A stretch of 64,000 nt of DNA, from assembly GCA_044224495.1 (NCBI GenBank), contig JBGAKG010000005.1, forward strand, positions 172,711 to 236,710, in the 5' to 3' direction. This stretch comes from Polyangiaceae bacterium. GTDB lineage: Bacteria; Myxococcota_A; Polyangia; Polyangiales; Polyangiaceae. This document shows, piece by piece, positions 14,444 through 64,000 of the stretch (positions are counted from its first letter, which is position 1; the number at the start of each line of letters is the position of its first letter). The notes below the pieces were generated by a model. It ran no database searches, was not told where the DNA came from, and was given only the letters and a program-made list of their open reading frames with translations. A program made the position numbers and the translations under genes.

Positions 14444-15937
14444 ATGGAACGATCGCGCACCGTGCCTTACTCTCGATCGAGACAGATGGTGGAGGCGGAA
14501 CGAAGCGGGCGGATGCATCTCCTCGTCGTCGAAGACGACGCCATGACGCGCAGGCTCCTGCGCGCGTGGTTGGAGCCGATGGGTTACGACGTCACCGACG
14601 TGGCGAGCGGCACCGCTGCGCTCGCGCAACCGCTCGATGCGATCGACGCGGTGTGTCTCGACCTCGGCTTGGACGACATGCCCGGGTACGACGTGCTGAA
14701 GCACCTCCGCGCCCACGCGCCCGACGTGCCCGTGATCGTGGTCACCGCGGAGTCCACCCTCGACACCGTCGTGCAAGTCATCCGCGCCGGCGCCTACGAC
14801 TACGTCACGAAGCCGATCGAGTCGGAGCACCTGCGGGTCGTCCTCGATCGCGCGATCGAGCACACGTCCCTCACGCGGCGCGTGCGCGACCTCGCCCGCC
14901 AGCTCAGCGAACGTGCACCTCTACTCATCGGCGAGTCGTCGGTGATGCGCGCGCTGCGCGGGAAGATCAGCCGCATCCTCCAGAGCGACGTCGCCGTCTG
15001 TGTCTTCGGCGAGAGCGGCACCGGCAAGGAGCTCGTCGCGCGTACGATCCACGCCGACGGGCGCCGCGCCAACGGGCCCTTCGTCGCCGTGAACTGCGCG
15101 ACGATCCCCGAGAACCTCCAGGAGTCGGAGCTCTTCGGTCACGAGCGCGGCGCGTTCACCGGCGCGACCGGGACGCACCGCGGGTGCTTCGAGCGCGCGG
15201 AGGGCGGCACCCTCTTCCTCGACGAGCTCGGTGAGATGAGCCTCGGCACGCAGGCAAAGCTCCTCCGCACGCTCCAGGAGCGCACGATCCGCCGCGTCGG
15301 CGGCAGCGCCGACATCAAGGTCAACGTCCGCATGGTGTGCGCGACGCACCGCAACCTCGAAGAAGAGGTGAAGAAGGGGAAGTTCCGCGAGGACCTCTAC
15401 TTCCGGCTCATGGTCTTCCCGATCGAGGTCCCTCCCCTGCGCGATCGCGTCGACGACATCCCGCTCCTCGTCGCGCACTTCATGAAGATGCTCCGCGCGG
15501 ACGTCGGGCGGGAGCACGACCGCATCTCGCCGACCGCGCTCGAGGCGCTCATGGCGCACAACTGGCCCGGCAACGTGCGCGAGCTCCAGAACGTGATCCA
15601 CCGCGCGATGCTCACGTGCGAGACCGACGAGCTCGACATCCCCGATCTCCCGCCGGCCATCCAGCGCCACGTGCTCCCCGACCTCCCGAAGGTGCCCGTG
15701 GCCGAGAGCGGCGCCGCGCCCGCGAGCGCGCCGCCGGGCCGCCTGCCGACGCTCGACCTGCGCCGGCTCGAGGAGATCGCGGTCCGCGAAGCACTCGCGC
15801 AGACCGACATGCACATGGGCAAAGCCGCCAAGCTCCTCGGTGTCGGGCGGTCCACGCTCTACCGGCGTCTCCTCGAGATGGGCATCATCGCCAAGGGCGA
15901 AGGCGACGGGGAGAAGGCCAAGGGCGAGGGCCCGTGA
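14444..15937 (+). CDS. sigma54-dependent response regulator (NtrC family)
   Basis: Receiver HLLVVEDD...D. Walker [27 protein letters not shown] at C-terminus. The true start may be the internal Met MHLLVVEDD (about 14511). Confidence 0.9.
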   Translation: MERSRTVPYSRSRQMVEAERSGRMHLLVVEDDAMTRRLLRAWLEPMGYDVTDVASGTAALAQPLDAIDAVCLDLGLDDMPGYDVLKHLRAHAPDVPVIVVTAESTLDTVVQVIRAGAYDYVTKPIESEHLRVVLDRAIEHTSLTRRVRDLARQLSERAPLLIGESSVMRALRGKISRILQSDVAVCVFGESGTGKELVARTIHADGRRANGPFVAVNCATIPENLQESELFGHERGAFTGATGTHRGCFERAEGGTLFLDELGEMSLGTQAKLLRTLQERTIRRVGGSADIKVNVRMVCATHRNLEEEVKKGKFREDLYFRLMVFPIEVPPLRDRVDDIPLLVAHFMKMLRADVGREHDRISPTALEALMAHNWPGNVRELQNVIHRAMLTCETDELDIPDLPPAIQRHVLPDLPKVPVAESGAAPASAPPGRLPTLDLRRLEEIAVREALAQTDMHMGKAAKLLGVGRSTLYRRLLEMGIIAKGEGDGEKAKGEGP

Positions 15938-17814
15938 CTGCGGGAGGCGACGAGCGCTTCCTCCGCGCCGTCCTCCGCCAGACGGGGGCGGTCCTCGCGC
16001 AGGACGCTCGCGGGACGATCCGCTTCGCGAGTGACGGGCTCCGCGGCTCGCTCGGCGTCTCCGATCCGGCCGCGCTCGTCGGTGACTCGATCGAGGCGCT
16101 CGTCCCGCTCCTGCGCGGCAACGCCGGCGCCGCGTTCGTCGAGCGCGCGCACGCGCAGATGGCGGGCGGAAAGCACGCCGCGGACGAGCTCCTCTTCGAC
16201 GACAAGCGCATCGTCCGCTTCGACTACACGCCGCTCCGCGATCAGGACGGGACGATCCTCGGTCACCGCTGGTCGTTCGGCGAGCCCATCGCGCGGAAGA
16301 GCGGCGAGTTCGAGCGCGCGCAGGACGGCTTCGTCGCCGCCGTCAGCCACGAGCTCCGCTCCCCGCTCCACGTCATGCTCGGCGTCACCGAGATGCTCCT
16401 CGAGCGCGCGCGTGATCCGGGCGATCGCGAGCTGATCGAGACGCTCCTCCGCTCGGGCCGCAGCCAGCTCAACATCCTGAACGACCTGCTCGACTTCTCG
16501 AAGTTCGGGTCGGGGAACTTCGAGCTCGCGCCGCGCGTGTTCCGCCCTGCCGACGTCGTGCGCGACTGCCTGAAGGGCGTCGACAGCGTCGCCGAGCGCA
16601 AGGGGCTGACCGCCCAGGCGGAGATGCGGAGCGATCTCGAGCAGCTCGCGTTCGGCGATCCCGACCGCATCCGCCAGGTCCTCACGAACCTCCTCACCAA
16701 CGCGGTGAAGTTCACGGAGCAGGGCGGCGTCATCGTGCGCGCGAAGCTCGAGGCCGGCTCCACCGGCTCCACGTTGCGGGTCGACGTCTTCGACTCCGGC
16801 GTCGGCGTTCCGCCCGAAGAGGCCTCCAACCTCTTCCAATCGTTCCGCCAAGGCACGAGCGGCAAGCGCAAGCGCGGCGGCACCGGCCTCGGGCTCTACC
16901 TCTCGCGCCAGCTCGCCATCACGATGGGCGGCGACGCGGGGTACACGCCCAACCCGCGCGGCGGCTCGGTCTTCTGGTTCACCGTTCGGCTCGGCCCCGT
17001 CCCCGCCGGCTACGTGCCGGCGCCCCCGCCACGCCCGAGCGTCTTCATCCCGCAGTCGCGGCGCAAGGGCGCGACGGTGCTGCTCGTCGAAGACACCGAT
17101 GCCAGCCGCCTCTGGGCGCGGCGCGTCTTCGAGTCGCACGGCTACTCCGTGATCGAGGCGCGCGACGGGCTCGAAGCGATCGAGGTGCTCGGCAAGACCG
17201 TGCCCGACGTCGTGATCATGGACTGGAACATGCCGCTCCTCGATGGGCGAGAGGCGACACGCCGCATCCGCAAGCTCCCCGGCGCCGCGTCGAGCGTGCC
17301 CATCCTCGGCCTCACCGCGAGCGCGCTCGCCACCGACCGCGACGAGTGCCTGAGCGCCGGGATGAACGCGTGCCTCTTCAAGCCGATCTCGGCGAAGGCC
17401 CTCCTTCGTCAGGTCGACGATCTGGTCTCGCGCGAGAAGGCGCCTCCGTCCGTCCCCGCCGAGCCCGACGTCTCGATCAAGACCGGCGAGCCCTACCTCG
17501 GGTTGCCCCCGAAGGTGTTCGCGGAGCTCGTCGACCTGTTCGTCGCCGACTCCACGCGCTGCATCGAGCAGACGTCGGCCGCCTTGAGCCGCGGCGACCG
17601 CGGCGCGCTCCAGCGTGCGCTCCACGCGCTCGCCGGGCTTTCGGGGAACCTGCGCCAGGCGAAGCTCTACGCGTTGACGCGCTCGCTCGAGCAAGCGCTC
17701 AAGGTGGGGGCCGACCTCAAGGAGATCGCCGAGCGCATCCCCGAGCTCACGCGCGCGCGCGAAGCGGCCGAGGACAGCCTGCGCGCGGACCAGACCAAGG
17801 CGCTCGCGACCTGA
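15934..17814 (+). CDS. hybrid sensor histidine kinase (PAS - HisKA - HATPase - receiver - HPt)
   Basis: The GTG start overlaps the upstream stop (GTGA). H-box AAVSHELRSPL. N/G boxes NLLTNAVKFT, GGTGLGLYLS. Receiver VLLVEDTD...VIMDWNMP. C-terminal HPt-like region with HALAGLSGNL. Confidence 0.85.
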   Translation: MTAGGDERFLRAVLRQTGAVLAQDARGTIRFASDGLRGSLGVSDPAALVGDSIEALVPLLRGNAGAAFVERAHAQMAGGKHAADELLFDDKRIVRFDYTPLRDQDGTILGHRWSFGEPIARKSGEFERAQDGFVAAVSHELRSPLHVMLGVTEMLLERARDPGDRELIETLLRSGRSQLNILNDLLDFSKFGSGNFELAPRVFRPADVVRDCLKGVDSVAERKGLTAQAEMRSDLEQLAFGDPDRIRQVLTNLLTNAVKFTEQGGVIVRAKLEAGSTGSTLRVDVFDSGVGVPPEEASNLFQSFRQGTSGKRKRGGTGLGLYLSRQLAITMGGDAGYTPNPRGGSVFWFTVRLGPVPAGYVPAPPPRPSVFIPQSRRKGATVLLVEDTDASRLWARRVFESHGYSVIEARDGLEAIEVLGKTVPDVVIMDWNMPLLDGREATRRIRKLPGAASSVPILGLTASALATDRDECLSAGMNACLFKPISAKALLRQVDDLVSREKAPPSVPAEPDVSIKTGEPYLGLPPKVFAELVDLFVADSTRCIEQTSAALSRGDRGALQRALHALAGLSGNLRQAKLYALTRSLEQALKVGADLKEIAERIPELTRAREAAEDSLRADQTKALAT

Positions 17815-17827
17815 GGCGTGACGGCGG

Positions 17828-18325
17828 GTGACGCGGTTTGAAGCGACGCCCCACGCGTGCCAGGATGTGCGCGTGCGCCTCGGCATCGCCGTGCTCCTGC
17901 TGCTCACCGCGTGCTCCAGCGGCGCCACGACGTCCCCTCCCCCGGCGACGAAGTTCTGCGCGGCGGACCCTCGGGTCAGCTCCTTCCGGATCGGCACCAC
18001 GGCGACCGGCGCCGCGGGCACGATGAAGGTCGAATTGACCGGCGCGACCCCGAGCGACATCGCCCAGGGAACGAACGAGTGGACGCTCCTCGTGACGTCG
18101 CCCACCGGCGCCCCGCTCGATGGGCTGACCCTCGCGGTCAAGCCCACGATGCCCGACCATGGCCATGGGAGCTCCGTCGTGCCGACGGTGACGGCGCTCG
18201 GGGGCGGTCGCTATCGCGCGAGCGAGCTCAGCCTCCCGATGCGCGGCGTGTGGAGCATCGCCGTGCAGGCGACCGGGAGCGTGAACGACTCGGCCACGTT
18301 CGTGTTCTGCGTCGACGGAAGCTGA
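17828..18325 (+). CDS. YtkA/CtaK-like periplasmic lipoprotein (putative copper chaperone)
   Basis: Lipobox LLLTACSS. Met/His motif KPTMPDHGHGSSVVPTV. Paralogous to 62808..63260. Start could be a downstream GTG. Confidence 0.6.
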   Translation: MTRFEATPHACQDVRVRLGIAVLLLLTACSSGATTSPPPATKFCAADPRVSSFRIGTTATGAAGTMKVELTGATPSDIAQGTNEWTLLVTSPTGAPLDGLTLAVKPTMPDHGHGSSVVPTVTALGGGRYRASELSLPMRGVWSIAVQATGSVNDSATFVFCVDGS

Positions 18326-18329
18326 GCGC

Positions 18330-19727
18330 TCACGGCACGCAGCGGTAGCCGCCGGCGCTCTTGGCCCAGTGGAGCTTCGTGCTCGCGAGCTCGAACGTGG
18401 GCATCGTCGCGCGGTACGAGGCGGCGAGATCGCCGGACGCAATCAGCTCGTCGAGCACCTCGAGCCCGATCGGGATGATCCGCACGCGCATCGTCACGTC
18501 GTCCGTCTCGGGCGGCACGTCGAAGGTCCGCGTGACCGAGTGCACGTACCCGGGATCGGTCGGAACGTTGGTCACCGCGGGCGGGAGTTGCTCCACCGTC
18601 GCCGAGAACGCATCCCACAAGAAGTGCACCGGCTGCTTCGCTTCGTTCAGGAGCGACTCCGTCAGCAGCCAGGTGCCGCCCGCGCTCGTGACCGCGGTGC
18701 CGTCGGGCACGACGCCGAAGCTCGCGACCTCGGTCCCGTTCGCGCGCGCCACCAGCTCGAGCCACGCACGCCGATCGTGGAGCGCCCCCGAGGGGAAGCC
18801 GTGGCCCGCGAACGCGTCGTCGAGCGTCACCGCGACCGACGTCTTCCCCTGCGGTGGCGAGACGCACAGCTTCGCCACCAACGTTCCGTCCAGCGCGCGT
18901 TGGACCGCGTCGCGCTGCGCGGTCGCCTCGGGGAACGGGACGAGCGCGACGTCCACCGCGGCCATCGCGTGGTCGTGGATCCGCCGCGACGGTGCGCCGG
19001 AGACCTCGGCGGCGAGCCCCACGCGGCCGGGCATGTGACACCCCGGGCACGTCAGCCGCACCTTCGGATCGTCGTGCGCGTAGACGCTCCCGCGCCACTC
19101 GGCGAACGTACGCTCCACGTCGAAGCCGTGGCCGTTGCGCACGTCGTGACACGACCCGCATGGCGCCGAAGATGCCCCGTTCTCACCATCGAACGCGGCG
19201 CTGCCCGTGCTCGCGTGCGGCGCGCCCGCCATCGGCTCCGCGAGCGGTCCGCGCATCGTGCCGTCCTTGCCGAACGTGAGCGCGGCGTTGTGATCGCCTT
19301 CCACGCTCGCGATCGTGTGGCACGAGAAACACGTCACGCCGCGCGACCACTTCGGCAACGCGGGGAGGTTCGTCGCGTCGCTCGAGAGCCCTTCGCTCCG
19401 CGCGACCGGAGCATGGCACCCGAGGCAGAGATCCTTCGGCCCACCGCCCTCGCGCTGGAAGCGCGCGTTCATCGCGACGAAGATCGGATCCTCCGCCGCG
19501 TACGCATGCATGCTGCCGGACCACTCGCGAAACGCACCCGGGTGGCAGCCCTTGCACTGCTCCGGATCGAGGAGCTGAGCGCGCGTGAGCTGCGGCGTCG
19601 CCGGTGCTTCGGTGCTGCAGCTCGTCGTCGCGATCGACGTGGACGATCCGAGCGCGCACGCGAGCGCGATGCCGACGAGCATGCCCCCGCGTCCGTGACC
19701 GACACGATCCACGCGCCCAGAGTTCAT
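18330..19727 (-). CDS. pentaheme c-type cytochrome lipoprotein
   Basis: Five CxxCH motifs (CKGCH, CLGCH, CFSCH, CGSCH, CPGCH). Lipobox LACALGSS. Paralogous to 53246..54994 (shared ERTFxEWR and CHMP motifs). Confidence 0.8.
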   Translation of the reverse strand: MNSGRVDRVGHGRGGMLVGIALACALGSSTSIATTSCSTEAPATPQLTRAQLLDPEQCKGCHPGAFREWSGSMHAYAAEDPIFVAMNARFQREGGGPKDLCLGCHAPVARSEGLSSDATNLPALPKWSRGVTCFSCHTIASVEGDHNAALTFGKDGTMRGPLAEPMAGAPHASTGSAAFDGENGASSAPCGSCHDVRNGHGFDVERTFAEWRGSVYAHDDPKVRLTCPGCHMPGRVGLAAEVSGAPSRRIHDHAMAAVDVALVPFPEATAQRDAVQRALDGTLVAKLCVSPPQGKTSVAVTLDDAFAGHGFPSGALHDRRAWLELVARANGTEVASFGVVPDGTAVTSAGGTWLLTESLLNEAKQPVHFLWDAFSATVEQLPPAVTNVPTDPGYVHSVTRTFDVPPETDDVTMRVRIIPIGLEVLDELIASGDLAASYRATMPTFELASTKLHWAKSAGGYRCVP

Positions 19728-19993: not shown

Positions 19994-20587
19994 ATGACGA
20001 ATTCGGGTTGCAAGTTTCTCGCTCATCGACTTTTGATGACGCTCATCATGCTCGAGCTCGTAGCAAGTTGGCTCGTGTCGGCGATGATCGCGTGGGTCCC
20101 CCTGCAGCGTGACGCCGACCGCGCCCGATACGACAGCATGGCGAAGGACATCGTCGCCGTCGCTTTCGACGAGACCGAAGAGCCGGTGTTCGCCGGCGAG
20201 CTCGGTCGTGCGAAGACCGCGCTCCTCATGGCGTCGATCGCCAGCTTCGAGAGCGGCTATCGCGCCGACGTGGACGACGGTCGAACGACCGGTGACCACG
20301 GACAGTCCTTTTGCATCATGCAAATACGCGTCGGCGCCGGCAAAACCGGCGAAGGCTGGACCGGTCAGGATCTGATCAAGGATCGCCAGAAGTGCCTCCG
20401 GGCCGCGCTCCATCGGATCCGCATCAGCTTCAACTGGTGCAAGGACCACGCGGTCGACGACCGCCTCGCCGGCTACACCGTCGGCACGTGCCGCGACAAC
20501 GAGCACCTGTCGCGTGACCGTGTCCAGCGCGCGAAGGCGTACTTCGGTCGCGCGCCGTTCACGCCGCCGGACGATCTCGTTCCTTGA
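19994..20587 (+). CDS. membrane-anchored lytic transglycosylase-like (SLT/lysozyme-like) protein
   Basis: N-terminal TM LIMLELVASWLVSAMIAWV. SLT-like catalytic region FESGYRAD...GDHGQSFCIMQIR and AYFGRAP. Its stop overlaps the next start (4 bp). Confidence 0.5.
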   Translation: MTNSGCKFLAHRLLMTLIMLELVASWLVSAMIAWVPLQRDADRARYDSMAKDIVAVAFDETEEPVFAGELGRAKTALLMASIASFESGYRADVDDGRTTGDHGQSFCIMQIRVGAGKTGEGWTGQDLIKDRQKCLRAALHRIRISFNWCKDHAVDDRLAGYTVGTCRDNEHLSRDRVQRAKAYFGRAPFTPPDDLVP

Positions 20588-21660
20588 GCGAGCTCACCGC
20601 ACAGCTCGAGCGCGCGCTTCTCCGTGAGCTCGCGCTCGAGTGGCGGCGCGTGAACGCGAGCTACTTCAAGGACGCGATGCGTCCGCCGACGGTGATGCTC
20701 GTCCCGGCCGAGGGCATCCTCGGGCGGTGGGAGAACGCGACGCGCACGCTCGCGATCTCGCGTCCCTTCGTCCTGTCCGCCGGCTGGGGTGCCGTCGTCG
20801 AGGTCGTGAAGCACGAGATGGCGCATCAGTACGTCAGCGAGGTGCTGAAGATCGAGGACGAGACGCCGCACGGGCCCGCGTTCCGCGACGTGTGTCGCCG
20901 GCTCGGCATCGACGGCGCCGCGCGCGGCGTGCCCGCGGCGACCCCGACCGATGCCGCGGAGGCACGCGCCGTCGAGCGGATCGCCAAGTTGCTCGCGCTC
21001 GCGGAGAGCCCGAACCAGCATGAGGCCGAAGCCGCGATGGCGGCCGCGCAGCGCTTGATGCTGAAGCACAACCTCGAGCAGCGCGCGGCGGCGTCGCAGC
21101 TTCCCTACGGCTTCCGGCACCTCGGGAAGCCGTCGGGGCGCGTGGGCGAGGCGGAGCGCTTGCTCGCCGCGCTCCTCGGGCGTCACTTCTTCGTGCAGGT
21201 GATCTGGGTGCCCGTCTATCGCGCGCGAGAGGGAAAGCGCGGCAGCGTGCTCGAGATCTGCGGGACCGAGGCCAACCTCGCGATGGCCGAGTACGTCCAC
21301 GCCTACCTGCTCCACACCGCCGAAGAGCTCTGGGCCGCGCACAAACGCGCGCGCGGGATCAAAGGCGATGCCGAGCGGAGAACCTACCTCGCCGGCGTCA
21401 TGGCCGGCTTCGCGGAGAAGCTCGTGCGGCAGGAAGCCGCGCACGAGCGCGAGGGGCTCGTCTGGGTCCGCGACGCGGACCTCGAGGGCTACTACCGGCG
21501 CCGCCACCCGTACGTGCGGAACGTTCGCTACGGCGGGCAGCGCCGCACGGAGACCTTCTCGCGCGGGCGCGAGGCGGGACAGAGCATCGTGCTGCGCAAG
21601 CCCGTCGGCGGCGCCGCGACCGCGCGCGGGAACCTCCTCGGCCCCGGCCCGCGCCGCTGA
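20584..21660 (+). CDS. SprT-like zinc metalloprotease domain protein with a DUF2786-like segment
   Basis: HEMAHQ zincin motif in an SprT-like context (VMLVPAEGILGRWEN...LAISRP). DUF2786-like region IAKLLALAESPNQHEAEAAMAAAQRLMLKHNL. Confidence 0.65.
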   Translation: MSELTAQLERALLRELALEWRRVNASYFKDAMRPPTVMLVPAEGILGRWENATRTLAISRPFVLSAGWGAVVEVVKHEMAHQYVSEVLKIEDETPHGPAFRDVCRRLGIDGAARGVPAATPTDAAEARAVERIAKLLALAESPNQHEAEAAMAAAQRLMLKHNLEQRAAASQLPYGFRHLGKPSGRVGEAERLLAALLGRHFFVQVIWVPVYRAREGKRGSVLEICGTEANLAMAEYVHAYLLHTAEELWAAHKRARGIKGDAERRTYLAGVMAGFAEKLVRQEAAHEREGLVWVRDADLEGYYRRRHPYVRNVRYGGQRRTETFSRGREAGQSIVLRKPVGGAATARGNLLGPGPRR

Positions 21661-49320: not shown

Positions 49321-50040
49321 TCAGGCTTCGTCGATCGCGGCGAGGCGCTCGATGGCGTCGGGCGCCGCGATTCGGAACCCCGCTTCCTCGGTCAGGATGA
49401 CCCCCGTCTTGTGCCAGCGGCTCAGGACGCGCGTCGCCGACTCGGGCGTCGTCCCGACGAGGGACGCGAGGTCGGAGCGCGACAGCGCGAGCGGGACCAT
49501 CACGTCTCCATCGTCCAGCTCGTCGCCGAAGCGCTCCGCGAGGTGGAGGAAGAGCGTCGCGAGTCGGTTCTCCACCTGCCCGGCACCGAGGATCCGGATG
49601 GTGCTCTGCAACGCGAGGTTGTGCTCGGCGAGCGACTGGTTGATCGCGTGAGCGATCGTCGTGTCGCGGAGCATGGCTTCGAGCAGCGCCCCCCGCTCGA
49701 TCCACAGGAGCTCCGCGAGCTCCGTGGCGACGACGGCGTCCGCCGGGTACGGGCGCCCGCGCACGACCGCCGCGTCACCGACGCTCTCGTGGGGACCGAA
49801 GATGCCGAGGATCGACGCGCGCCCGCTGCGGAGCGGCGCGGCGACCTTCACGACGCCGCTCGCGATCACCGAGAGCTCGCGCGCTTCGTCGCCGGCGCGC
49901 CAGAGGAGCTCGCCGCGCGCATGCCGACTCCGTCGGCTCGAACGTCCCAGCTCGGCGAGCGACGAGGCCTCGAGCGCCCCGAACACGCGCGAGACTCGGA
50001 GGATCTTCTGCGCACTCTCCACCCGTCCATCCGACACCAT
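49321..50040 (-). CDS. Crp/Fnr-family transcriptional regulator
   Basis: cNMP-binding-like beta-roll, then HTH LSRSDLASLVGTTPESATRVLSRW. Start ambiguous (Met at 50076, 50052 or 50040). Confidence 0.75.
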   Translation of the reverse strand: MVSDGRVESAQKILRVSRVFGALEASSLAELGRSSRRSRHARGELLWRAGDEARELSVIASGVVKVAAPLRSGRASILGIFGPHESVGDAAVVRGRPYPADAVVATELAELLWIERGALLEAMLRDTTIAHAINQSLAEHNLALQSTIRILGAGQVENRLATLFLHLAERFGDELDDGDVMVPLALSRSDLASLVGTTPESATRVLSRWHKTGVILTEEAGFRIAAPDAIERLAAIDEA

Positions 50041-50135
50041 GCTCCTCTTCATGCCGTCGCACGCAGGATTGTGCACTGACGCACGTCATCGCCCCCTTCG
50101 AAGGTGCACGGCACGCTGACGGTGGAGGTTCCGCC

Positions 50136-53100
50136 ATGCGTGCTCGTCCCGCTCTCGCGGTGCTCGTCGTCGCGCTCGCCGCCGCCGTGGCTCCCCAGCT
50201 CGCGTGCAGCTCCCACGACGTGCCGCAAGCCACCTACTTCGAGCGTGTCGTCTCGCCCGTGCTCCAGACGAGCTGCGCGCGGTCACCGACCGGCTCCGGC
50301 TGCCACGTCAGCGACGCGCGCGGCAACGCGTTCGGCAACCTCGACGTCACGAGCTTCGCGAACCTGAACAAGCGGCGGGACTTGCTCGCGACCTACGGTC
50401 CCTACCGACAGCCGAGCTTCCTCCTCAAGGTCATCCCGGAGCAGGAGATCGGGCTGCGGAGCTTCGACGGCACCGCGACCACGGTCCGGAGCGACGTGCG
50501 CCACACCGGCGGCTCGGTCTTCGACCCCAGTGCTTCGGGCTACCTCGTGCTCGCGCGTTGGATCGAGAACGGCGCGACCGAGAACAACAACGGGATCCGG
50601 ACCGTCCCCGTCGCCTCCGATCCGTGCTCGAGCACGGTGCCCGCCACGCCCGGCTTCGATCCGACGAAGGACCCGACGACCCCCGACTGGCCGACCTTCC
50701 GCGACACGGTGAACGCGCCCCTCGCGAACCGCTGCGGAGCGGGAAGCTGCCACGGCAACCCGATGAACGAGCTGTACCTGACCTGCGGCACGACGCCCGA
50801 GCAGACCCGGTTCAACTACTTCGCCGCCGTCGACTACCTCGGGAGCAGCCCCGATCAGTCGGAGCTCGTTCGGCGCCCGCTCGCGCAGACGTTCGGAGGC
50901 TCGTTCCACGAAGGCGGCGTCGTCTTCGAGACCTCGAGCGATCCCGACCTCGTCGCGCTCGAGGCGTGGGCCGAAAAGCACGGACCGCTCGTCGTCCCCG
51001 ACTTGGGGCCCGGCTTTTCGTACTTCGCGCGCCGCGTCCAGCCGGTGCTCGTGCGGAAGGGCTGCCTCCAGCTCCAGTGCCATTCGTCCTCGAGCTTCCA
51101 CGACTACCGGCTCCGCGGCGGTGCCGGCGGGAGCTTCTCGTTCTCGGCGACGCGCAAGAACTACGAGCTCAGCCTCGCTCAGCTCGCGCTCGAGAGCGAC
51201 GACCCGCGCGCGAGCAGGCTCGTGCGGAAGAACCTGTTCCGACCGGAGCTCGGAGGCGTCGGGATCGTCCATCGCGGCGGCCCCCTCTTCGAGGATCTCG
51301 GGAAAGATCCCGCCGTCGGGAGCTCGTGCGACGGCAAGGGATGGGACCTGGACGGTGGGAGCCTCGACACGATCCCCGCCTTCTGCATCGTCCGCGAGTG
51401 GCTGCGTCGCGAGCGCACCGCGCGGCCCGTCGCGCCGTGGACCGGCGTCGCCTTCGTCCGGCGCGCGCTCTCGAGCGCGCCCGATCGCCTCCAGGACTTC
51501 GACCTCTACCGACCCGGGAGCGATCTCCGTCTCGTCGACGTGCAGGTCGACGGAAGTGGCGCCGTCACCCTCGCGAACGAGCGCTCGGTGACGACGAGCT
51601 GCGGGCTCGATCCTTCGACCGCCGACATTCGCCGACCGGCCGTGTCGTGGGATGCGAAGCGGATCGCGTTCGCCGCCCGCGCTTCGGCGGGCGCGCCGCT
51701 CCGGATCTACGAGCTCGCAGCGGACGGGAGCGGTTGTACGCTCCACGCCGGCATCGGCACCGCGCCGCCGAGCGGCAACGGGCTCCCGATCCACGACTTC
51801 GATCCCAGCTTCGGGCCGCCCGATGGCAACGGTGTCGCCCCGATCGTCTTCGCGTCGACGCGCGGCAACCTCGACTCGACCCCGTACGACTACACCGGCC
51901 CCCAACGCACGCCGGCGGACCCGACGAAGCCGAACGCCGACCTCTACGTCTACGAGGCCGACCCGAAGAAGCCGGGCTCGTTCCGCATCCGGCAGCTCAC
52001 CTTCCTCCTCGACCTCGAGCGGCAGCCCGCCTTCATGGCGGACGGGCGCGTCATCTTCACGATCGAGAAGCGCCTCCCCGGGTTCCACCAGCTCGCCCTC
52101 CGTCGCATCAACCTCGACGGCGGCGACTACCACCCGCTCTTCGGCCAACGCGGGAGCGTGGGCTTCCACGCCGTGTCCCAGGTCGTGCAGCTCCCCGACA
52201 AGAACTTCGCCGCCATCTTCGCGGACCACGGTGTCCCCCATCGCGGCGGAACGCTCGGCGTGGTGAACCGCACGATCGGCGTCGACTTCGGCAGCACCGA
52301 CGCCGCGGACTATCCGCTCGATCCCGCGCTCGCGACGGGCACCTCGACGAAGCAACCGAGCCCGGCCTTCTTCCTCCACTCGCTGCGGATCGTCGACCCT
52401 GCCGTCACCGGTCGCGCGAACGTCGGCACGGCGGGCTTCTTTGCGTCGCCGGCGCCGCTCCCCGACGGGAGGATCCTCGCGAGCTTCGCCGCCGCGAGCG
52501 ACGCCGTGAGCTTCACCGGCGACTACGACGTCGTCATCGTCGACCCGAGCACCGGCGCGCGAACGCCGCTCCTCGGCGCTCCCGGCGTCGCCGACATCGA
52601 GGCGGTCGCCATCTACGGGCGCCCCATCCGCAAGGTCTACGCGTCGGCGCCATCGGAGCCGAACGCGTACGGCATGGACGAGACGCGCTCGACCGCCGAC
52701 ATCACGCTCCACGACGCGCCGACGATCCTCGCCCTCATGCTGCAGAACACGCCGGCGGGGCGCTCGGTCGACCCCGACGTTCGGTCACTGCGCTTGTTCG
52801 AGGAGCTCCCGCCTCCGCTGGAGGTCTCGAGCTTCGACCTCGGCGGGGCGAACGTCGTGACGGATGCATGGGGCAAGGTCTACGTGCGGCGCCGCTTGAT
52901 CGGGGCGGTGCCGATCGAGAGCGACGGCTCGGCACGCTACCTCGTCCCCGGCGGGCTCCCGCTCGCGCTCGAGGTCCCCGAGACCCCGATGTCGACGACG
53001 GCGAAGCTCCCGCGCTTCGTGAACGAGCACCTGATGTTCACGCCGGGAGAGTCCGTCCACGAGGCGTTCCCGCACGGCTTCTTCGACGGGTTCTGCGGGC

Positions 53101-53249
53101 AATGCCACGGCGCGACGAGCGGGCGGCCGCTCGACGCCGCGATGAAGCCCGACATCTTCTCCGGCGCCTCGCGCACGATCGCCGCCGGGCGGCCCGCGAC
53201 GAACCTGAACCTTGCTCCCGCGAGCCGCGGCGCTCCGGTCGGGCCATGA
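50136..53249 (+). CDS. large (1037 aa) lipoprotein with a single C-terminal CxxCH, unknown family
   Basis: Lipobox LACSS. One CxxCH (CGQCHGA) near the C-terminus. Stop overlaps the downstream cytochrome start (ATGA). Confidence 0.6.
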   Translation: MRARPALAVLVVALAAAVAPQLACSSHDVPQATYFERVVSPVLQTSCARSPTGSGCHVSDARGNAFGNLDVTSFANLNKRRDLLATYGPYRQPSFLLKVIPEQEIGLRSFDGTATTVRSDVRHTGGSVFDPSASGYLVLARWIENGATENNNGIRTVPVASDPCSSTVPATPGFDPTKDPTTPDWPTFRDTVNAPLANRCGAGSCHGNPMNELYLTCGTTPEQTRFNYFAAVDYLGSSPDQSELVRRPLAQTFGGSFHEGGVVFETSSDPDLVALEAWAEKHGPLVVPDLGPGFSYFARRVQPVLVRKGCLQLQCHSSSSFHDYRLRGGAGGSFSFSATRKNYELSLAQLALESDDPRASRLVRKNLFRPELGGVGIVHRGGPLFEDLGKDPAVGSSCDGKGWDLDGGSLDTIPAFCIVREWLRRERTARPVAPWTGVAFVRRALSSAPDRLQDFDLYRPGSDLRLVDVQVDGSGAVTLANERSVTTSCGLDPSTADIRRPAVSWDAKRIAFAARASAGAPLRIYELAADGSGCTLHAGIGTAPPSGNGLPIHDFDPSFGPPDGNGVAPIVFASTRGNLDSTPYDYTGPQRTPADPTKPNADLYVYEADPKKPGSFRIRQLTFLLDLERQPAFMADGRVIFTIEKRLPGFHQLALRRINLDGGDYHPLFGQRGSVGFHAVSQVVQLPDKNFAAIFADHGVPHRGGTLGVVNRTIGVDFGSTDAADYPLDPALATGTSTKQPSPAFFLHSLRIVDPAVTGRANVGTAGFFASPAPLPDGRILASFAAASDAVSFTGDYDVVIVDPSTGARTPLLGAPGVADIEAVAIYGRPIRKVYASAPSEPNAYGMDETRSTADITLHDAPTILALMLQNTPAGRSVDPDVRSLRLFEELPPPLEVSSFDLGGANVVTDAWGKVYVRRRLIGAVPIESDGSARYLVPGGLPLALEVPETPMSTTAKLPRFVNEHLMFTPGESVHEAFPHGFFDGFCGQCHGATSGRPLDAAMKPDIFSGASRTIAAGRPATNLNLAPASRGAPVGP

Positions 53250-54994
53250 CCCGCTGGCGCGAGCGAGCCACGCTCGTCCTCACCGCCACGCTCCTCGGCG
53301 CCGGTACGGCAGGCGCCGCGTGCTCCAGCGACGACGAGCTCGCGCCGGGGAGCGATGCCGGGAGCGACGTCTTCGTCGAGGCGCAAGACGACCCGACGAC
53401 CGAGCTCGGGCCGTCGACGGATGGGGGCGACGCCGAAGGCCCGATCGATCTCGAGGACTTTCACGTTCCCGGCACGCAGATCGGCGACGTCCCCTGGGCG
53501 GCGCTGCTGCGACCGTCCGACTGCACGTCGTGCCACGGCGCAACGACGACGCCCGCCGCCCCCGGGCCCACCTGGTCGGCGAGCTTGATGTCGGTCGCAG
53601 GAAAGGACCCGCTCTTCTACGCGCAGCTCGCGACCGCGAATCAGGACGTCCCCGGGGTCGGCTACTACTGCCTGCGCTGCCACGTCCCCGCGTCGATCGT
53701 GACGGGCAACGCCGCGATCCCGAGCGGAAAGGTCCTCTCGAACTACGATCGCGACGGAGTCAGCTGCCACTTCTGTCACATGATGGTCGACCCGACGCTG
53801 CCGGATGCGGCCCCGAGCCAGGACGCACCGATCCTGGCAGCGCTCGCCGATCGGCCGTCCCATTTTGGTAACGCGCAGTTCGTCCTCGATCCCGGCGGGC
53901 TCCGGCGCGGTCCCTACGTCGACGCCGCTGCGCTGCACCCCTACACGTCTTCGCCCTTCTTCCGGCGGAGCGAGCTGTGCGGGACGTGTCACGACGTGGG
54001 GAACCCGGCCGTCCCCGCGACGGATGCCGGCTTCGCCTACGATCCTCCCAAGCAGCGCGCCGCGAACCCCGACCCGGTCGCGCAGTTCCCGCTCGAGCGC
54101 ACCTTCTCCGAGTGGCGCGCCTCCGCGTTCGCCGACGGCGGCGTCGACATGGGCGGGCGCTTCGGCGGGGCCGACGGCGGCGTCGTCTCGACGTGCCAGG
54201 ACTGCCACATGCCGGTCGAGACGTCGCAGGGCTGCATCTTCGGCCCGAGCCGGACGGATCTGAGGCGCCACGACTTCGCGGGCGCATCGGCGTGGGTGCT
54301 CGACATCGTGTCCCTTCGCGAGGGGGCCAACGTCGATCAACCCGCCCTCGCGCGCGGCCACACCAATGCGGTCGCGATGCTGCAGCGCGCGGCCACGCTC
54401 ACGGTCTCGAAGAACGGGGCGCAGGTGGTCGTCCGGGTCACCAACGAGAGCGGGCACAAGCTCCCGACGGGCCACATCGAGGGGCGCCGCGTCTTCCTCG
54501 AGGTCAAGTTCACCGACGGCGCCAACGCGGTGCTCACCCACCACGGGCGCTGGAACCCGGCGACGGGAGATCTCGAAGGCGCGCCGACGACCGTGTTCGA
54601 GATGGAGATCGGGCTCAGCCCCACCGCCGCGAAGCTCACCGGCCTGCCCGCCGGCCCGACCACGCACATGTCGCTCGCCGACGTGGTCGTCTCGGACAAT
54701 CGCATCCCGCCGCGGGGCTTCAGCAACGTGGCGTTCGGTGCCGTCGGTGCGGGCGCCGTCGGTGCGACGTACGCCGACGGCCAGCACTGGGCCGACGTCC
54801 CGTTCGCGATCCCGAACGGCGCGACGAAGGTCGAGGTTCGGTTGCTCTACCAGACCGTGACGCGCGAGTACGTCGAGGCGCTCGCGAAAGGGAACAAGAC
54901 CGACGGTTGGGGAACGGAGCTCCAGAGCTTGTGGCTCGCGACGGGTCGTGCGCCGCCGATCGAGATGGCGTCCACCCAGCTCTCCCTCCCGTGA
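53246..54994 (+). CDS. pentaheme c-type cytochrome lipoprotein (paralog of 18330..19727)
   Basis: Lipobox GAACSS. CTSCH, CLRCH, CHFCH, CGTCH, CQDCH. Shares RTFSEWR and CHMP motifs with the other cytochrome. Confidence 0.8.
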   Translation: MTRWRERATLVLTATLLGAGTAGAACSSDDELAPGSDAGSDVFVEAQDDPTTELGPSTDGGDAEGPIDLEDFHVPGTQIGDVPWAALLRPSDCTSCHGATTTPAAPGPTWSASLMSVAGKDPLFYAQLATANQDVPGVGYYCLRCHVPASIVTGNAAIPSGKVLSNYDRDGVSCHFCHMMVDPTLPDAAPSQDAPILAALADRPSHFGNAQFVLDPGGLRRGPYVDAAALHPYTSSPFFRRSELCGTCHDVGNPAVPATDAGFAYDPPKQRAANPDPVAQFPLERTFSEWRASAFADGGVDMGGRFGGADGGVVSTCQDCHMPVETSQGCIFGPSRTDLRRHDFAGASAWVLDIVSLREGANVDQPALARGHTNAVAMLQRAATLTVSKNGAQVVVRVTNESGHKLPTGHIEGRRVFLEVKFTDGANAVLTHHGRWNPATGDLEGAPTTVFEMEIGLSPTAAKLTGLPAGPTTHMSLADVVVSDNRIPPRGFSNVAFGAVGAGAVGATYADGQHWADVPFAIPNGATKVEVRLLYQTVTREYVEALAKGNKTDGWGTELQSLWLATGRAPPIEMASTQLSLP

Positions 54995-56028
54995 ACGGCG
55001 ATCGCACCCGAAGCGCGATCCGCGGATGGCTCACCGCGTGCGCCGTCCTCACGGCGGCGATGATCCTCCTCGGCGGGCTCACACGGCTCACCCGCGCCGG
55101 CCTCTCGATCACGACGTGGGATCCGGTGATGGGAGCGCTCCCTCCCCTCGATCACGGAGCGTGGGAGCACGCGTTCGAGCTCTATCGCTCGTCCCCCGAA
55201 GGGCGGCTCCGCGCCGACGCGATGGACCTCGGCGCGTTCCAGCACATCTACTGGATCGAGTGGGCACACCGCCTGCTCGGACGTGCGCTCGCGGTGGTGC
55301 TGTTCGGTCCGCTCGTCGTCTTCGCTGCGCGGCGCAGCCTCCCGCGCACGGTCACGCTCCGCCTCGGGCTGGTGTTCGTCGCGGGCGGGGTCCAGGCCCT
55401 GCTCGGCTGGCTCATGGTCCAGAGCGGGCTCGTCGATGCCCCGCACGTCAGCCCGTACCGCTTGGCGGGGCACTTCACGCTCGGCGTCGCGCTCTTCGTG
55501 GCCATGCTCTGGAGCGCATTCGACGCGTGGGCGACGGACGCTGCCGTCGTCGAGCGCACGCCGGCGCGCCTCCGGCTCCTCGCTTTCGTCGCCGGTGCCA
55601 ACGCATTCGCCCTCCTCGTCTGGGGCGCGCTGATGGCGGGGCACCACGCCGGGCTCGTCTTCTCCGACTTTCCGATGATGGGCGGCCGAGTCGTGCCGAG
55701 CGGCGCCTTCGCGAACGGCTCGCTCGGGGGCGCTGCGGTCGGCGACGCGATCACGGTCCACTTCATCCATCGCATGCTCGCGTTCGCGCTCGTCGCCCTC
55801 GCCGGCGCCCTGGTCGTCGTCTCGCGCAGCGCGCCGGTGGCGCCGACGACGCGGCGCTGGGCCCTCGTCGTGCTCGCAGCCGTGCTCGTTCAGCTCGCGC
55901 TCGGCGCCGCGACGGTGATGACCCACGTGCCGCTCGCGCTCGCGTCCGCTCATCAAGCCGGCGCGCTGTTCGTCGTCTTCGCGCTGACGGGCCTCGTGCG
56001 TCGTACCAGCGCCGGGCCTGCACTATAG
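54991..56028 (+). CDS. ctaA: heme A synthase (COX15/CtaA, type 2)
   Basis: Eight TM helices. Conserved His motifs WAHRLLGR and IHRMLAF. GTG start overlaps the upstream stop. Confidence 0.8.
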   Translation: MNGDRTRSAIRGWLTACAVLTAAMILLGGLTRLTRAGLSITTWDPVMGALPPLDHGAWEHAFELYRSSPEGRLRADAMDLGAFQHIYWIEWAHRLLGRALAVVLFGPLVVFAARRSLPRTVTLRLGLVFVAGGVQALLGWLMVQSGLVDAPHVSPYRLAGHFTLGVALFVAMLWSAFDAWATDAAVVERTPARLRLLAFVAGANAFALLVWGALMAGHHAGLVFSDFPMMGGRVVPSGAFANGSLGGAAVGDAITVHFIHRMLAFALVALAGALVVVSRSAPVAPTTRRWALVVLAAVLVQLALGAATVMTHVPLALASAHQAGALFVVFALTGLVRRTSAGPAL

Positions 56029-58774: not shown

Positions 58775-59048
58775 ACCGGCCACCACGTCGATCCGCGGGC
58801 GCATGCGCGCGCTCGTCGCCGAGATCCTCGAGATCGAGCAAGACCGCATCGAGCCGCAGAGCCGCCTCCGCGAGGATCTCGGCATGGACTCGCTCGGGAG
58901 CCTCGAGATGCTCTCCACGATCAGCGAGCAACTCGACGTGCACCTCGAGATCGAGGAGGCGATGGACATCGTCACGTTCGACGACGCCTGCCGCTTCGTC
59001 GAACGACAGCTCCCCGAAGCCAGGGTGGTCCATGAGCACCGCGCCTGA
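58764..59048 (+). CDS. acyl carrier protein (stand-alone)
   Basis: AGGAG RBS lies 9 nt upstream. Phosphopantetheine site DLGMDSL. 94 aa. Confidence 0.8.
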   Translation: MSSEPATTSIRGRMRALVAEILEIEQDRIEPQSRLREDLGMDSLGSLEMLSTISEQLDVHLEIEEAMDIVTFDDACRFVERQLPEARVVHEHRA

Positions 59049-61858: not shown

Positions 61859-62836
61859 TCAATGCGGCGGGCAACCGCAGTCCGGCGTCGTCGGGTGCAT
61901 CGGGCACGAGCTCGGGCGTCCCCACGCCCACACGACGCCCATCGTCCCGCCGAACGCCGTCGGCTCGTTCTGCCCGAGGCCTTCGACGTGGGGCGTCCAC
62001 GACGCACCGAGCGTGAGCCGCAGGCCCCGCCCGAGCGGAAACGCGGCCGACACGCCGACGGTCGAACGCGCGGTCGCGGAGCCGTCGACGGACTCGCCCT
62101 CCTGCGCGGCGGCGAGCGAAGCTTCGTAGCCGACCGTCGCCCCTACCGACACTCCGCGCCCGAGCGACCAGCCGACGGCCGCGAACGTCGCGAAGAGCGG
62201 ACCGAGCCGCGTGCTCACCCCACGGACGTCGCGCGCTCCACGGAGCGCGATCGTCCCGCTCAGGCTCACGAACACGGGGCCGAACGCCTGCTCGAGCGCG
62301 AGGCCGTTCTCCCACTGCACCACGCCCACGCCCGTGGCGTCCGTCGCGAGCGGGCGATGCGCGGCATCGGCGGCGACGCCGGTCGGCAACACCAGCGACG
62401 AGAGCACTTGGATCCGGGGCACGCCCTTCGTCGTACCAAGTTGGGACAGCGTCCAGCGAGAGCCGACACGCACGTCCCCGAGCCCGCCTCCGACGTCGCT
62501 CGCTCCGCCGGCCTGGCGAATCGTCTCGACGAGCGGGAGCGAGAGCGACAGCTCCGCGCGGCTCCACGGCGCCCAGCCGATCACCAAGCGCTGGCTCAGA
62601 TCGACCTCCCGTGAGCCCTCGGACGGAGCGCGAAAGCTCCGATCCGCGCCCCACGAGCCGGTCACCGCCGACGCCGACGCAACGAGCCCGACGAGCGCGT
62701 CCTCGTTCGGCTGGAGGCGCGTCGGGGCGAAGCCGCTCGGGCTCGCGCAGCACGCCTGGGCAGCTGCCAGACGCGGCACGAGCAGGAGCGCGAGGCCGAG
62801 GAGCGCGCTAGCGCACGTCGAGGACGATCGTCGCAT
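61859..62836 (-). CDS. secreted hypothetical protein
   Basis: Signal peptide ALLGLALLLVPRLAAAQA. Beta-rich Gly/Ser/Val composition. Cys-rich C-terminus CPMHPTTPDCGCPPH. Confidence 0.5.
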   Translation of the reverse strand: MRRSSSTCASALLGLALLLVPRLAAAQACCASPSGFAPTRLQPNEDALVGLVASASAVTGSWGADRSFRAPSEGSREVDLSQRLVIGWAPWSRAELSLSLPLVETIRQAGGASDVGGGLGDVRVGSRWTLSQLGTTKGVPRIQVLSSLVLPTGVAADAAHRPLATDATGVGVVQWENGLALEQAFGPVFVSLSGTIALRGARDVRGVSTRLGPLFATFAAVGWSLGRGVSVGATVGYEASLAAAQEGESVDGSATARSTVGVSAAFPLGRGLRLTLGASWTPHVEGLGQNEPTAFGGTMGVVWAWGRPSSCPMHPTTPDCGCPPH

Positions 62837-63260
62837 CTTCGTTCATGCTCCCGCCGAGGTGCGTGTGGAGCTCCCACGTCCCCGCCATGTAGAGGCTCAC
62901 CTCGTGCGCCACGTAGACCCCGCCGCCCATCGGTTCGACCGTCGGGTGGACCGAGGAGCCGTGGCCATGCGCCGGCATCATCGGGGTCAGCTCGATCGCC
63001 AACCCATCCATCGCGACGCCGTCGGCCCCGGTCACCGTCAGCTCGACCATGTTCACGCCGACCTGGGGCGGCTGGGGCGACGTTCGGACGGCGACCGTGC
63101 ACGCACCGCCGCTCGAGGTCACGCGCGCGTAGGTCGGCCCCGAGAACGTCGCCGCGGGGGTCGCCGCCGAGCTGCAGGCGAGCACCGCCGCCAGGGCCAT
63201 GGCGCCGAGCGGACGGAGCGGACGGAGCGGACGGAGGAAGAAGCCCAGCGAGGTAGCCAT
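62808..63260 (-). CDS. YtkA/CtaK-like periplasmic lipoprotein (putative Cu chaperone; paralog of 17828..18325)
   Basis: Lipobox AAVLACSS. Motif TPMMPAHGHGSSVHPTV. Signal n-region LRPLRPLRPL is encoded by a 9-nt tandem repeat. Confidence 0.6.
   Translation of the reverse strand: MATSLGFFLRPLRPLRPLGAMALAAVLACSSAATPAATFSGPTYARVTSSGGACTVAVRTSPQPPQVGVNMVELTVTGADGVAMDGLAIELTPMMPAHGHGSSVHPTVEPMGGGVYVAHEVSLYMAGTWELHTHLGGSMNEDATIVLDVR
63207..63236 (-). repeat. 9-nt tandem repeat (gagcggacg)x3 within the lipoprotein signal-peptide coding region
   Basis: Plus strand reads gagcggacggagcggacggagcggacggagg, translating on the minus strand to (LRP)n. Confidence 0.7.
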
Positions 63261-63343
63261 GCCCGAGACTTTGCGTCCGGGGTCGCCCGGGGGCGATGAC
63301 GTCCGTCAGGGCGGCCCCCGCCGACCGGGCCTACGGAGGAGTC

Positions 63344-64000
63344 ATGGTCCCGCTCGTCATGCTGCGCCGCCCGCCCCGACAGGCCGGGCCCGGCGCTCCG
63401 TCGCCGTCGAGCCCCTCTGCGGGCGACGGCGTACCCGTCTTCCGGCTCGGTTTCCGCCCCTTCTTCCTGGCCGCGGGGGCGTTCGCCATCGTCGTGGTCC
63501 CGCTCTGGCTCCTGGTCTGGAGCGGGCGCGTCTCCCTCCCCTCCACCGCGACCGTACCGACCAACTGGCACGCCCACGAGATGGTGTTCGGCTTCACGGG
63601 CGCCGTGATCGCCGGGTTCCTGCTCACCGCGGTCCGCAACTGGACGAATCGGCCCACCCCGAGCGGCGCTCCTCTCGCCGGGCTCGTCCTGCTCTGGGCC
63701 CTCGGCCGGATCGGGCTCCTGGTCGACGGTCTCCTCCCCCACGCCCTCGTCGCCACCGTCGACGTGGCCTTCTTTCCCGCCGTCGCCCTCGCGGTCGGGC
63801 GCCCGATCGCGAGCGCCCGAAACTGGCGGAACCTGGGCTTCGTCCCTCTCCTCCTGGCGCTCGCCGCGGCCGACGTCGTCTTCCACGTCGTCCCCACGTG
63901 GTCGCTCCGCGTCACGCGCAGCGCGCTCGACGTGGTGCTCGTGATCGTCGCCGTCGTCGGTGGGCGCGTCATCCCCTCGTTCACGGAGAGCGCGCTCGGC
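63344..64000 (+). CDS. nnrS: NnrS-family heme-copper membrane protein; 3' end lies beyond the window
   Basis: GGAGGAG RBS. FRLGFRPFFLAAGAFAIVVVPLWLLVW...NWHAHEMVFGF...AGFLLTAVRNWT matches NnrS N-terminal helices. Not in the ORF list because there is no stop before the window end. Confidence 0.7.
   Translation, partial: MVPLVMLRRPPRQAGPGAPSPSSPSAGDGVPVFRLGFRPFFLAAGAFAIVVVPLWLLVWSGRVSLPSTATVPTNWHAHEMVFGFTGAVIAGFLLTAVRNWTNRPTPSGAPLAGLVLLWALGRIGLLVDGLLPHALVATVDVAFFPAVALAVGRPIASARNWRNLGFVPLLLALAAADVVFHVVPTWSLRVTRSALDVVLVIVAVVGGRVIPSFTESALG

Follow-up and report, generated by a model that had tools for sequence, protein, structure and literature searches.

A conserved gene pair of a YtkA-like lipoprotein and a pentahaem cytochrome in Myxococcota, with a possible role in periplasmic copper handling

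We analysed a stretch of 64,000 nucleotides from a Polyangiaceae bacterium (assembly GCA_044224495.1, contig JBGAKG010000005.1, positions 172,711 to 236,710), referred to below as the window, which encodes two YtkA-like lipoproteins, YtkA_A and YtkA_B, and two pentahaem c-type cytochromes, CytA and CytB. There is strong evidence, drawn from gene order and protein fusions, that YtkA_A and CytA work together physically. Our preferred, still tentative reading is that the window carries two distinct units of two genes each, both belonging to a periplasmic copper-handling set of myxobacteria, in which YtkA_A and CytA would form a haem-to-copper electron-transfer pair. An initial annotation of this DNA had described the four genes as a duplicated module; its observations on the sequence, the YtkA family assignment and the pairing of YtkA_A with CytA stand, and the duplicated module does not. 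The four open reading frames (ORFs) lie where that annotation had placed them:

17828..18325, forward strand: YtkA_A, a YtkA-like (PF13115) lipoprotein, identified by Pfam, alignments, an AlphaFold2 (AF2) model and a fold match to CrdA.
18330..19727, reverse strand: CytA, a pentahaem c-type lipoprotein cytochrome with a C-terminal Ig-like domain, identified by its CxxCH motifs, Pfam Cytochrome_C554 and similarity to 5ze8 in sequence and fold.
53246..54994, forward strand: CytB, a paralogous pentahaem lipoprotein cytochrome, with five CxxCH motifs and 29% identity to CytA.
62808..63260, reverse strand: YtkA_B, a second YtkA-like lipoprotein, identified by Pfam, BLASTP and alignment.

A six-frame hidden Markov model scan of the whole window found no additional copy of the YtkA or pentahaem cytochrome family. 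The G+C content of the window is 70.7%, the public sequences nearest to it are metagenome-assembled genomes from Polyangiaceae and other Myxococcota, and CytA and CytB are identical to public NCBI contig proteins (P0023, P0143).

The genes encoding YtkA_A and CytA are convergent, with 4 bp between their stop codons. The initial annotation had remarked on this convergence, and the pairing proves to be conserved and occasionally fused. In order to examine it in other genomes, we took 80 loci from one-genome-per-species GTDB contigs by means of the pattern MP[DA]HGHGS, nearly all of them labelled as Myxococcota or (delta)proteobacterial metagenome-assembled genomes, added nine further loci through protein look-ups, and searched all loci with the window proteins. 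Adjacency was counted over the 81 non-redundant Myxococcota loci bearing a YtkA_A-type gene. A CytA homologue lies at most 500 bp from that gene in 44 of these, in convergent orientation in 34 and on the same strand in 10, and within about 6 kb in eight further loci. Many of the loci with the pair have no other gene in common with the window (for example L005, L006 and L009), indicating that the adjacency is not mere inherited synteny. When we searched 1.84 billion representatives with a profile, we additionally recovered at least two natural fusions, P0289 (649 aa) and P0398 (634 aa). In both, a pentahaem lipoprotein of the CytA type comes first, followed by a linker rich in Gly and Asp and by a YtkA_A-type domain at the C-terminus; P0289 shares 39% of its residues with CytA (E 2e-99) and 44% with YtkA_A (E 9e-30) in the aligned regions. 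A third protein, P0331, is a fragment across the same cytochrome-YtkA junction. It is the combination of adjacency in both orientations with fusion that argues for a physical partnership.

The view that the adjacency is inherited gene order without functional meaning draws on the convergence of the two genes, which are hence not co-transcribed, and on the fact that the closest relatives share the whole neighborhood. We consider it hardly credible, since the adjacency persists where no other gene is shared and in both orientations, and since the fusion proteins contradict it directly. The tail-to-tail layout is itself conserved in the 34 convergent loci, with gaps of about 4-190 bp, and in the window the gap (18325-18330) leaves no space for separate terminators. 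Scans around the pair for a sigma-70 promoter, a terminator and the sigma-54 consensus returned nothing above chance.

Both lipoproteins belong to the YtkA-like family. YtkA_A, for which GTG 17873 is the likely start and gives a 150-aa product as in public assemblies (P0001, L090), scores 43.3 bits against PF13115, and YtkA_B scores 42.5 bits (E 6e-11 and 1e-10, respectively; the gathering score is 25.9 bits). The two are 41% identical (BLASTP E 7e-25), and the motif quoted in the initial annotation is present in both, as VKPTMPDHGHGSSVVPTV and LTPMMPAHGHGSSVHPTV, with MP(D/A)HGHGSS in common. Each has a lipobox, LLTA-C29 in YtkA_A and VLA-C in YtkA_B. We assessed residue conservation in 171 representatives of the family differing by at least 50%, of which 150 keep the lipobox Cys. 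Met108 and His113 are invariant (171/171), Pro109 and Met138 are each found in 169 and Trp142 in 170; His111 is present in 165, and the remaining six all have Met, a His/Met exchange as expected of a Cu(I) ligand. The initial annotation had named two observations that would speak against it, lipoproteins lying outside the YtkA-like family and His/Met residues varying in orthologues, and we found neither. Cys44 and Cys161 covary, both being present in 148 representatives and both absent in 19, and probably form a disulfide in YtkA_A. YtkA_B has the MPxHGHGS...MxGxW motif as in YtkA_A, but lacks a pair of the Cys44/Cys161 type. A tandem 9-bp unit (GAGCGGACG), repeated three times at 63207-63233, encodes LRPLRPLRPL in the N-terminal region of YtkA_B.

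The AF2 model of YtkA_A has a mean predicted local distance difference test score (pLDDT) of 86.6, with a beta-sandwich core mostly above 90. Its best solved fold is Helicobacter pylori CrdA in the apo and Ag-bound forms (9ll2/9ll4; Foldseek E 2e-5, template modelling score 0.65 on target), and the copper proteins FetP/P19/FtrA, CopC and PcoC rank below it. CrdA, which belongs to the CrdAB-CzcBA copper resistance system, is the best match by sequence profile as well (hmmsearch E 6.6e-6), with its metal loop at the same position (MP...M.G.W). In the profile alignment Met108, His111 and Met138 pair with Met69, Met72 and Met99 of CrdA, which are part of a Met cluster proposed as a Cu(I) site (PMC9182242). 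The ligand set of CrdA is all Met (MMxEMPGMxxM) and has no His, whereas the window motif MPDHGHGS has His at two positions. Met108, His111, His113, Met138 and Trp142 make up a probable copper site of YtkA_A, and both fold and motif point to copper as the ligand.

CytA, with a likely start at ATG 19682, has its lipobox Cys at Cys37, present in 46 of 46 homologues. As the initial annotation had seen, CytA and CytB are both pentahaem cytochromes with ERTF(A/S)EW and CHMP in common; each contains exactly five CxxCH motifs, and they are 29% identical over 351 residues (E 3e-20). CytA matches Pfam Cytochrome_C554, and finds PDB entry 5ze8, the pentahaem c552 of Thermochromatium tepidum, by sequence (E 1.8e-11, and 3e-16 with a profile). 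5ze8 is also the sole significant PDB fold match (E 6e-17, 448 columns) of its AF2 model (pLDDT 88.9). Besides those of the haem motifs, CytA has six conserved His, which would be enough for each of its five haems to be bis-His ligated. CytA thus resembles c552 and the 'PHC' family (ExtKL, Gsu2801 and the PHCs of cable bacteria) in its five CxxCH motifs, its fold with an Ig-like domain and its GHxxPxG motif, and differs from c552 in being a lipoprotein and in sequence (19% identity). To our knowledge, a YtkA partner has not been reported for c552 or PHCs. The c552 fold family also takes in Geobacter ExtKL and the cable-bacteria PHC cytochromes (PMC11976967), and ExtKL is now described as the polysulfide reductase MccSep, with Cys239 as a ligand of haem 2 and Sec325 as the catalytic residue (bioRxiv 10.1101/2025.11.18.688581).

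This relationship raises the alternative of an enzymatic CytA whose substrate would be a small inorganic species (sulfur, nitrogen or metalloid), with YtkA_A as its copper-insertion chaperone or as an auxiliary or substrate-binding subunit. In MccSep the active site is flanked by haem 2 and the Ig-like domain (bioRxiv 10.1101/2025.11.18.688581), and the motifs framing it, ERTFxEW and GHxxPxG, are conserved in CytA and align with those of MccSep/ExtKL. The multihaem enzyme MccA shows that such enzymes can require copper (PMC7558416, cuproenzyme table), and chaperone genes often adjoin the genes of their clients. However, profile alignment to 9wt8/9wt9 places MccSep Cys239 at Thr207 of CytA (within ERTFAEW; kept in 45 of 46 homologues) and Sec325 at Ala315 (GHGFPSG-A), the position at which CytB has His (GHKLPTG-H), so that CytA is not an MccSep-type enzyme. 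The six extra His would suffice for bis-His ligation of the five haems, and no conserved Cys or Met cluster fit to hold copper was seen in CytA beyond the haem motifs and the likely structural pair Cys288/Cys463. A permanent fusion, moreover, is more in keeping with partners that work together than with a factor needed once for assembly, and we regard an enzymatic CytA as unlikely. NrfA-type chemistry was rejected separately, as all five motifs are CxxCH and no CxxCK active-site haem is present. Scores against NCBIfam ExtKL were 27-33 bits (cut-off 250), and Pfam Cytochrom_C552 gave E 0.068 for CytB and no match for CytA.

A conserved, sometimes fused lipoprotein/cytochrome pair suggests a so far undescribed haem-to-copper redox step in the periplasm. 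In the electron-transfer reading that we tentatively prefer, the first unit would comprise YtkA_A, a beta-sandwich of the CrdA/CtaK type binding one copper ion by its Met108, His111 and His113 loop with Met138 and Trp142, and CytA, a pentahaem wire of the c552/ExtKL fold with an Ig-like domain. YtkA_A would dock with CytA, as a single polypeptide in some species, and we infer that electrons would move between the haems of CytA and the copper of YtkA_A. Reduction of Cu(II) to Cu(I) is the likeliest direction, and would make the copper available to Cu(I) chaperones, to exporters or for the assembly of cuproenzymes; the opposite direction, oxidation of Cu(I) for detoxification, would be less likely. 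In the second unit, YtkA_B would be another copper-carrying lipoprotein, and would serve a putative outer-membrane channel with an N-terminal Cys-Cys, the OMP325 protein described below. That YtkA_A and CytA form a dedicated periplasmic haem-based cupric reductase-chaperone pair, in which respiratory-chain electrons would reduce YtkA-held Cu(II) and the resulting Cu(I) would pass to exporters, the barrel system or cuproenzyme assembly, is a possibility that we treat as doubtful.

There are precedents for a redox module serving copper trafficking, namely the cupric reductase CcoG, encoded with FixH/CcoH, and an archaeal CopZ-Fe-S fusion that reduces Cu(II) (PMC7558416). Like the YtkA_A/CytA pair, CcoG (FixG) in ccoGHIS and the CopZ-Fe-S fusion of Archaeoglobus fulgidus have a redox module tied to copper trafficking genetically or by fusion. 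They use Fe-S clusters on the cytoplasmic side, whereas the cofactors of YtkA_A/CytA would be c-type haems on the periplasmic side. The YtkA domain has a relative in FixH, and the YtkA_B-type protein of L014 has a weak FixH match (E 0.071).

Several points weigh against the electron-transfer reading. About one third of the related YtkA loci have no cytochrome within their flanks, and convergent transcription is an unusual layout for co-expressed partners. Haem 2 of CytA may be an open catalytic haem. Copper as the metal is argued from fold, motif and neighbors only, and copper genes are absent from the surroundings of the YtkA_A/CytA pair in the window itself. His2Met2 sites are able to bind other metals too, and proteins of the P19/FetP type employ copper as a cofactor in iron handling.

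We identified families that recur around the related loci from our own ORF calls, by all-against-all BLAST clustering followed by Pfam and NCBIfam searches:

10 related loci: a third YtkA-like lipoprotein with a His-rich segment (Pfam YtkA E 6.4e-7).
9 related loci: a PSCyt1-domain protein upstream of CytA (Pfam PSCyt1 E 1.8e-9).
9 related loci: a RegB/PrrB-like kinase with a RegA/PrrA-like regulator (E down to 4e-75 and 2e-55).
9 related loci: TonB-dependent receptors (NCBIfam TonB-siderophore E 1.1e-17).
7 related loci: a copper P1B-ATPase (TIGR01511 E 1.8e-169).
6 related loci: an MNIO bufferin/HvfB-type maturase (E 1.7e-83).
5 related loci: small His/Cys-rich lipoproteins without a family match.

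Bufferins, peptides that chelate copper, give protection from copper stress (PMC11626156). The recurrent set supports copper as the probable metal. The part of the initial annotation that proposed a copper/haem delivery set is accordingly retained as regards copper, to which fold and gene neighbors point, and dropped as regards its duplication.

A metal other than copper was also considered. The pair might handle iron, with YtkA_A carrying a fixed copper cofactor, as in P19/FetP/FtrA, and the haem chain reducing Fe(III) or oxidizing Fe(II) for uptake. FetP, P19, FtrA and HftA are indeed the next-best folds after CrdA (E 2e-3 to 2e-2), and TonB-dependent receptors recur nearby in the nine loci listed. 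We judge this very unlikely, given that the FetP/P19-type matches are weak (root-mean-square deviation 7-8 A) and CrdA is matched by both sequence and fold, that no family of FTR1/EfeU-type permeases is among the recurrent neighbors of the related loci, and that the specific neighbors are copper genes.

In the window, YtkA_B is followed by a barrel gene and is divergent from an NnrS gene:

61859..62836, reverse strand: OMP325, a 325-aa predicted outer-membrane beta-barrel (weak Pfam Phenol_MetA_deg match, E 0.025).
63296..64000, forward strand: an NnrS-family membrane protein, truncated by the window end (Pfam NnrS E 1.7e-58).

The start of OMP325 overlaps the end of YtkA_B by 29 nt in the same direction, YtkA_B being the first gene of a two-gene operon, and in 16 related loci a barrel homologue comes immediately after a YtkA_B-type gene. 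Judged by this gene order, the conserved partner of YtkA_B is the OMP325 barrel and not a cytochrome. The distance between the YtkA_B/barrel and YtkA_A/CytA pairs is often 1-4 kb (L016, L036, L042, L048, L053 and others), against 45 kb in the window. The mature N-terminus of OMP325 is Q-A-C-C-A, and its Cys-Cys is invariant in the barrel family; we infer a channel role for this protein. CrdA of H. pylori is likewise a predicted lipoprotein encoded beside an outer-membrane protein, CrdB, in parallel to YtkA_B and OMP325, although OMP325 is not of the CrdB type and no resistance-nodulation-division pump lies beside the barrel.

Members of the barrel family normally end in YAW[YF]. OMP325 of the window runs 20 residues past the usual aromatic end (...VVWAW-GRPSSCPMHPTTPDCGCPPH, 61859-61921), and this extra C-terminal tail is rich in Cys, His and Met. 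The extension is absent in eight barrel homologues, seven of which end in ...AW[YFLN].

The NnrS gene is next to YtkA_B in the window, as initially annotated, and divergent from it. Among the flanks of 85 related loci NnrS was found in only one, and there not beside a YtkA_B-type gene, on which ground we reject a link to YtkA_B; the adjacency is probably incidental and the gene probably not part of the system.

CytB belongs to an operon of its own, with three further genes to be noted:

50136..53249, forward strand: Big1037, a 1037-aa lipoprotein without family assignment, characterized from its sequence and a homologue in L093.
54991..56028, forward strand: a CtaA/COX15 haem A synthase (Pfam COX15-CtaA E 4e-85).
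49321..50085, reverse strand: a Crp/FNR-family regulator, divergent from Big1037-CytB-CtaA and also found beside the CytB homologue in L093.

The Big1037-CytB-CtaA operon is marked by 4-nt overlaps, ATGA at 53246 (Big1037 stop/CytB start) and GTGA at 54991 (CytB stop/CtaA start). Big1037 has two Cx4CH motifs and one CxxCH, and a homologue that is 59% identical adjoins the CytB homologue in L093. Hydrazine synthase alpha was considered as its identity and rejected (18.9 bits against 800 in NCBIfam and 16.7 against 26.6 in Pfam, each over only about 33 residues).

CytB is 55-60% identical to proteins of Phycisphaerae, Vicinamibacteria and Myxococcota. By this measure it represents a different, far more widely distributed orthologous group than CytA, and one unusually conserved for a protein of unknown function. 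Some 8 kb of DNA with unrelated genes separate it from YtkA_B, and no YtkA gene was found within 8-10 kb of a CytB homologue in any of four related loci. On this ground we reject CytB as the partner of YtkA_B, a role that falls to OMP325, and with it goes the duplicated module of the initial annotation.

Between CtaA and the barrel there is a co-directional run of five genes (56082-61841), the last of which encodes a B12-binding radical SAM enzyme (60537-61841, Pfam). The other four, read from their translations, are an AMP-binding acyl-CoA ligase, an NAD-dependent epimerase/reductase, a small acyl-carrier-like protein and an acyl-CoA dehydrogenase, and the run looks like a lipid or secondary-metabolite tailoring cluster. 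In L091 (Phycisphaerae contig k141_815264, 1-17845) a CytB homologue stands beside Rieske/cytochrome b, another multihaem cytochrome, a B12-radical SAM protein, NnrS-DUF1858, a qNOR-type NorB and an Rrf2 regulator. CytB of the window likewise has the B12-radical SAM gene (60537-61841) and NnrS less than 10 kb away, and these two cases hint at a nitric oxide-related context for the CytB family.

The initial annotation had likened the lipoproteins to CtaK, and in this light the window could hold two copies of a CtaK-like CuA/haem-copper assembly set delivering copper and haem to cytochrome oxidase or NnrS. CtaK (YtkA) and the YtkA domain of YcnJ support CuA assembly in Bacillus subtilis (PMC9145763, PMC13344008), and the window lipoproteins resemble them as PF13115 members and as anchored lipoproteins outside the cytoplasm. 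They may also do so in their near-invariant His/Met residues, which in CtaK include the functionally required His118. CytB overlaps the haem A synthase gene by the 4-nt GTGA, suggesting translational coupling, and NnrS is divergent from YtkA_B. The arrangement of regulators in related loci also has a counterpart in Rhodobacter, where regB-senC-regA (prrBCA) is organized around a Sco copper chaperone. RegB/PrrB-like and RegA/PrrA-like genes lie between YtkA genes in L032, L042, L053, L061, L078, L079 and other loci, the copper-chaperone-like proteins of the nine loci being YtkA-like rather than Sco; the RegB/RegA-like pair is absent from the window.

Even so, we think such an assembly set distinctly unlikely. 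The distance between CytB and YtkA_B, the lack of a YtkA neighbor in all four CytB-homologue loci and the unconserved NnrS adjacency all speak against it, and no cox, sco or PCuAC gene stands next to either YtkA gene in the window. CtaK has a C-terminal EEEHSHHH tail, whereas YtkA_A ends in FCVDGS and YtkA_B in VLDVR, with no His-rich tail. The window genes, unlinked to cox/sco, are instead partnered with a pentahaem cytochrome or an outer-membrane barrel. The missing tail and the lack of an adjacent cox/sco gene leave orthology to CtaK, and a role in CuA assembly specifically, unsupported, and an efflux ATPase, a bufferin maturase and an outer-membrane barrel look more like copper homeostasis than oxidase assembly.

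Upstream of YtkA_A the window encodes two candidate regulators:

14444-15937, forward strand: a sigma-54-type response regulator (Pfam).
About 15940-17814, forward strand: a hybrid kinase with PAS, HisKA, receiver and Hpt domains (Pfam).

The hybrid kinase ends 58 bp upstream of YtkA_A, and the linkage of regulator and kinase to YtkA_A is kept only in close relatives (synteny in L001, L004, L010 and L090); the two are possible local regulators. On the other side, 19994-21660 encodes a 197-aa protein without a family match and an SprT-like/DUF2786/DUF7168 protein. Both are 64-93% identical in L001, L002, L004, L010 and L012, and they accompany YtkA_A/CytA in those close relatives only.

The YtkA and PHC families are known, and a literature search for YtkA together with multihaem found no earlier description of their pairing. 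According to a 2025 paper in the Journal of Biological Chemistry, experiments had addressed no YtkA domain but that of CtaK; a genetic test of the YcnJ domain has followed (PMC13344008, 2026). In the c552/PHC family, MccSep is the only member with a known function, and the step from Cu(II) to Cu(I) outside the cytoplasm is poorly understood. The analysis corrects the annotation in that CytA and CytB are not interchangeable copies, and the YtkA-PHC pairing links periplasmic copper reduction, YtkA domains and PHC cytochromes in a testable hypothesis, for which culturable carriers of the pair exist in Labilithrix luteola (DSM 27648, locus L052 at about 10.23-10.25 Mb of NZ_CP012333.1) and Minicystis rosea. 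If the doubtful reading of the pair as a cupric reductase-chaperone is true, no cupric reductase specific to the bacterial periplasm would have been described before it, and a member of the c552/PHC family other than MccSep would gain its first physiological role.

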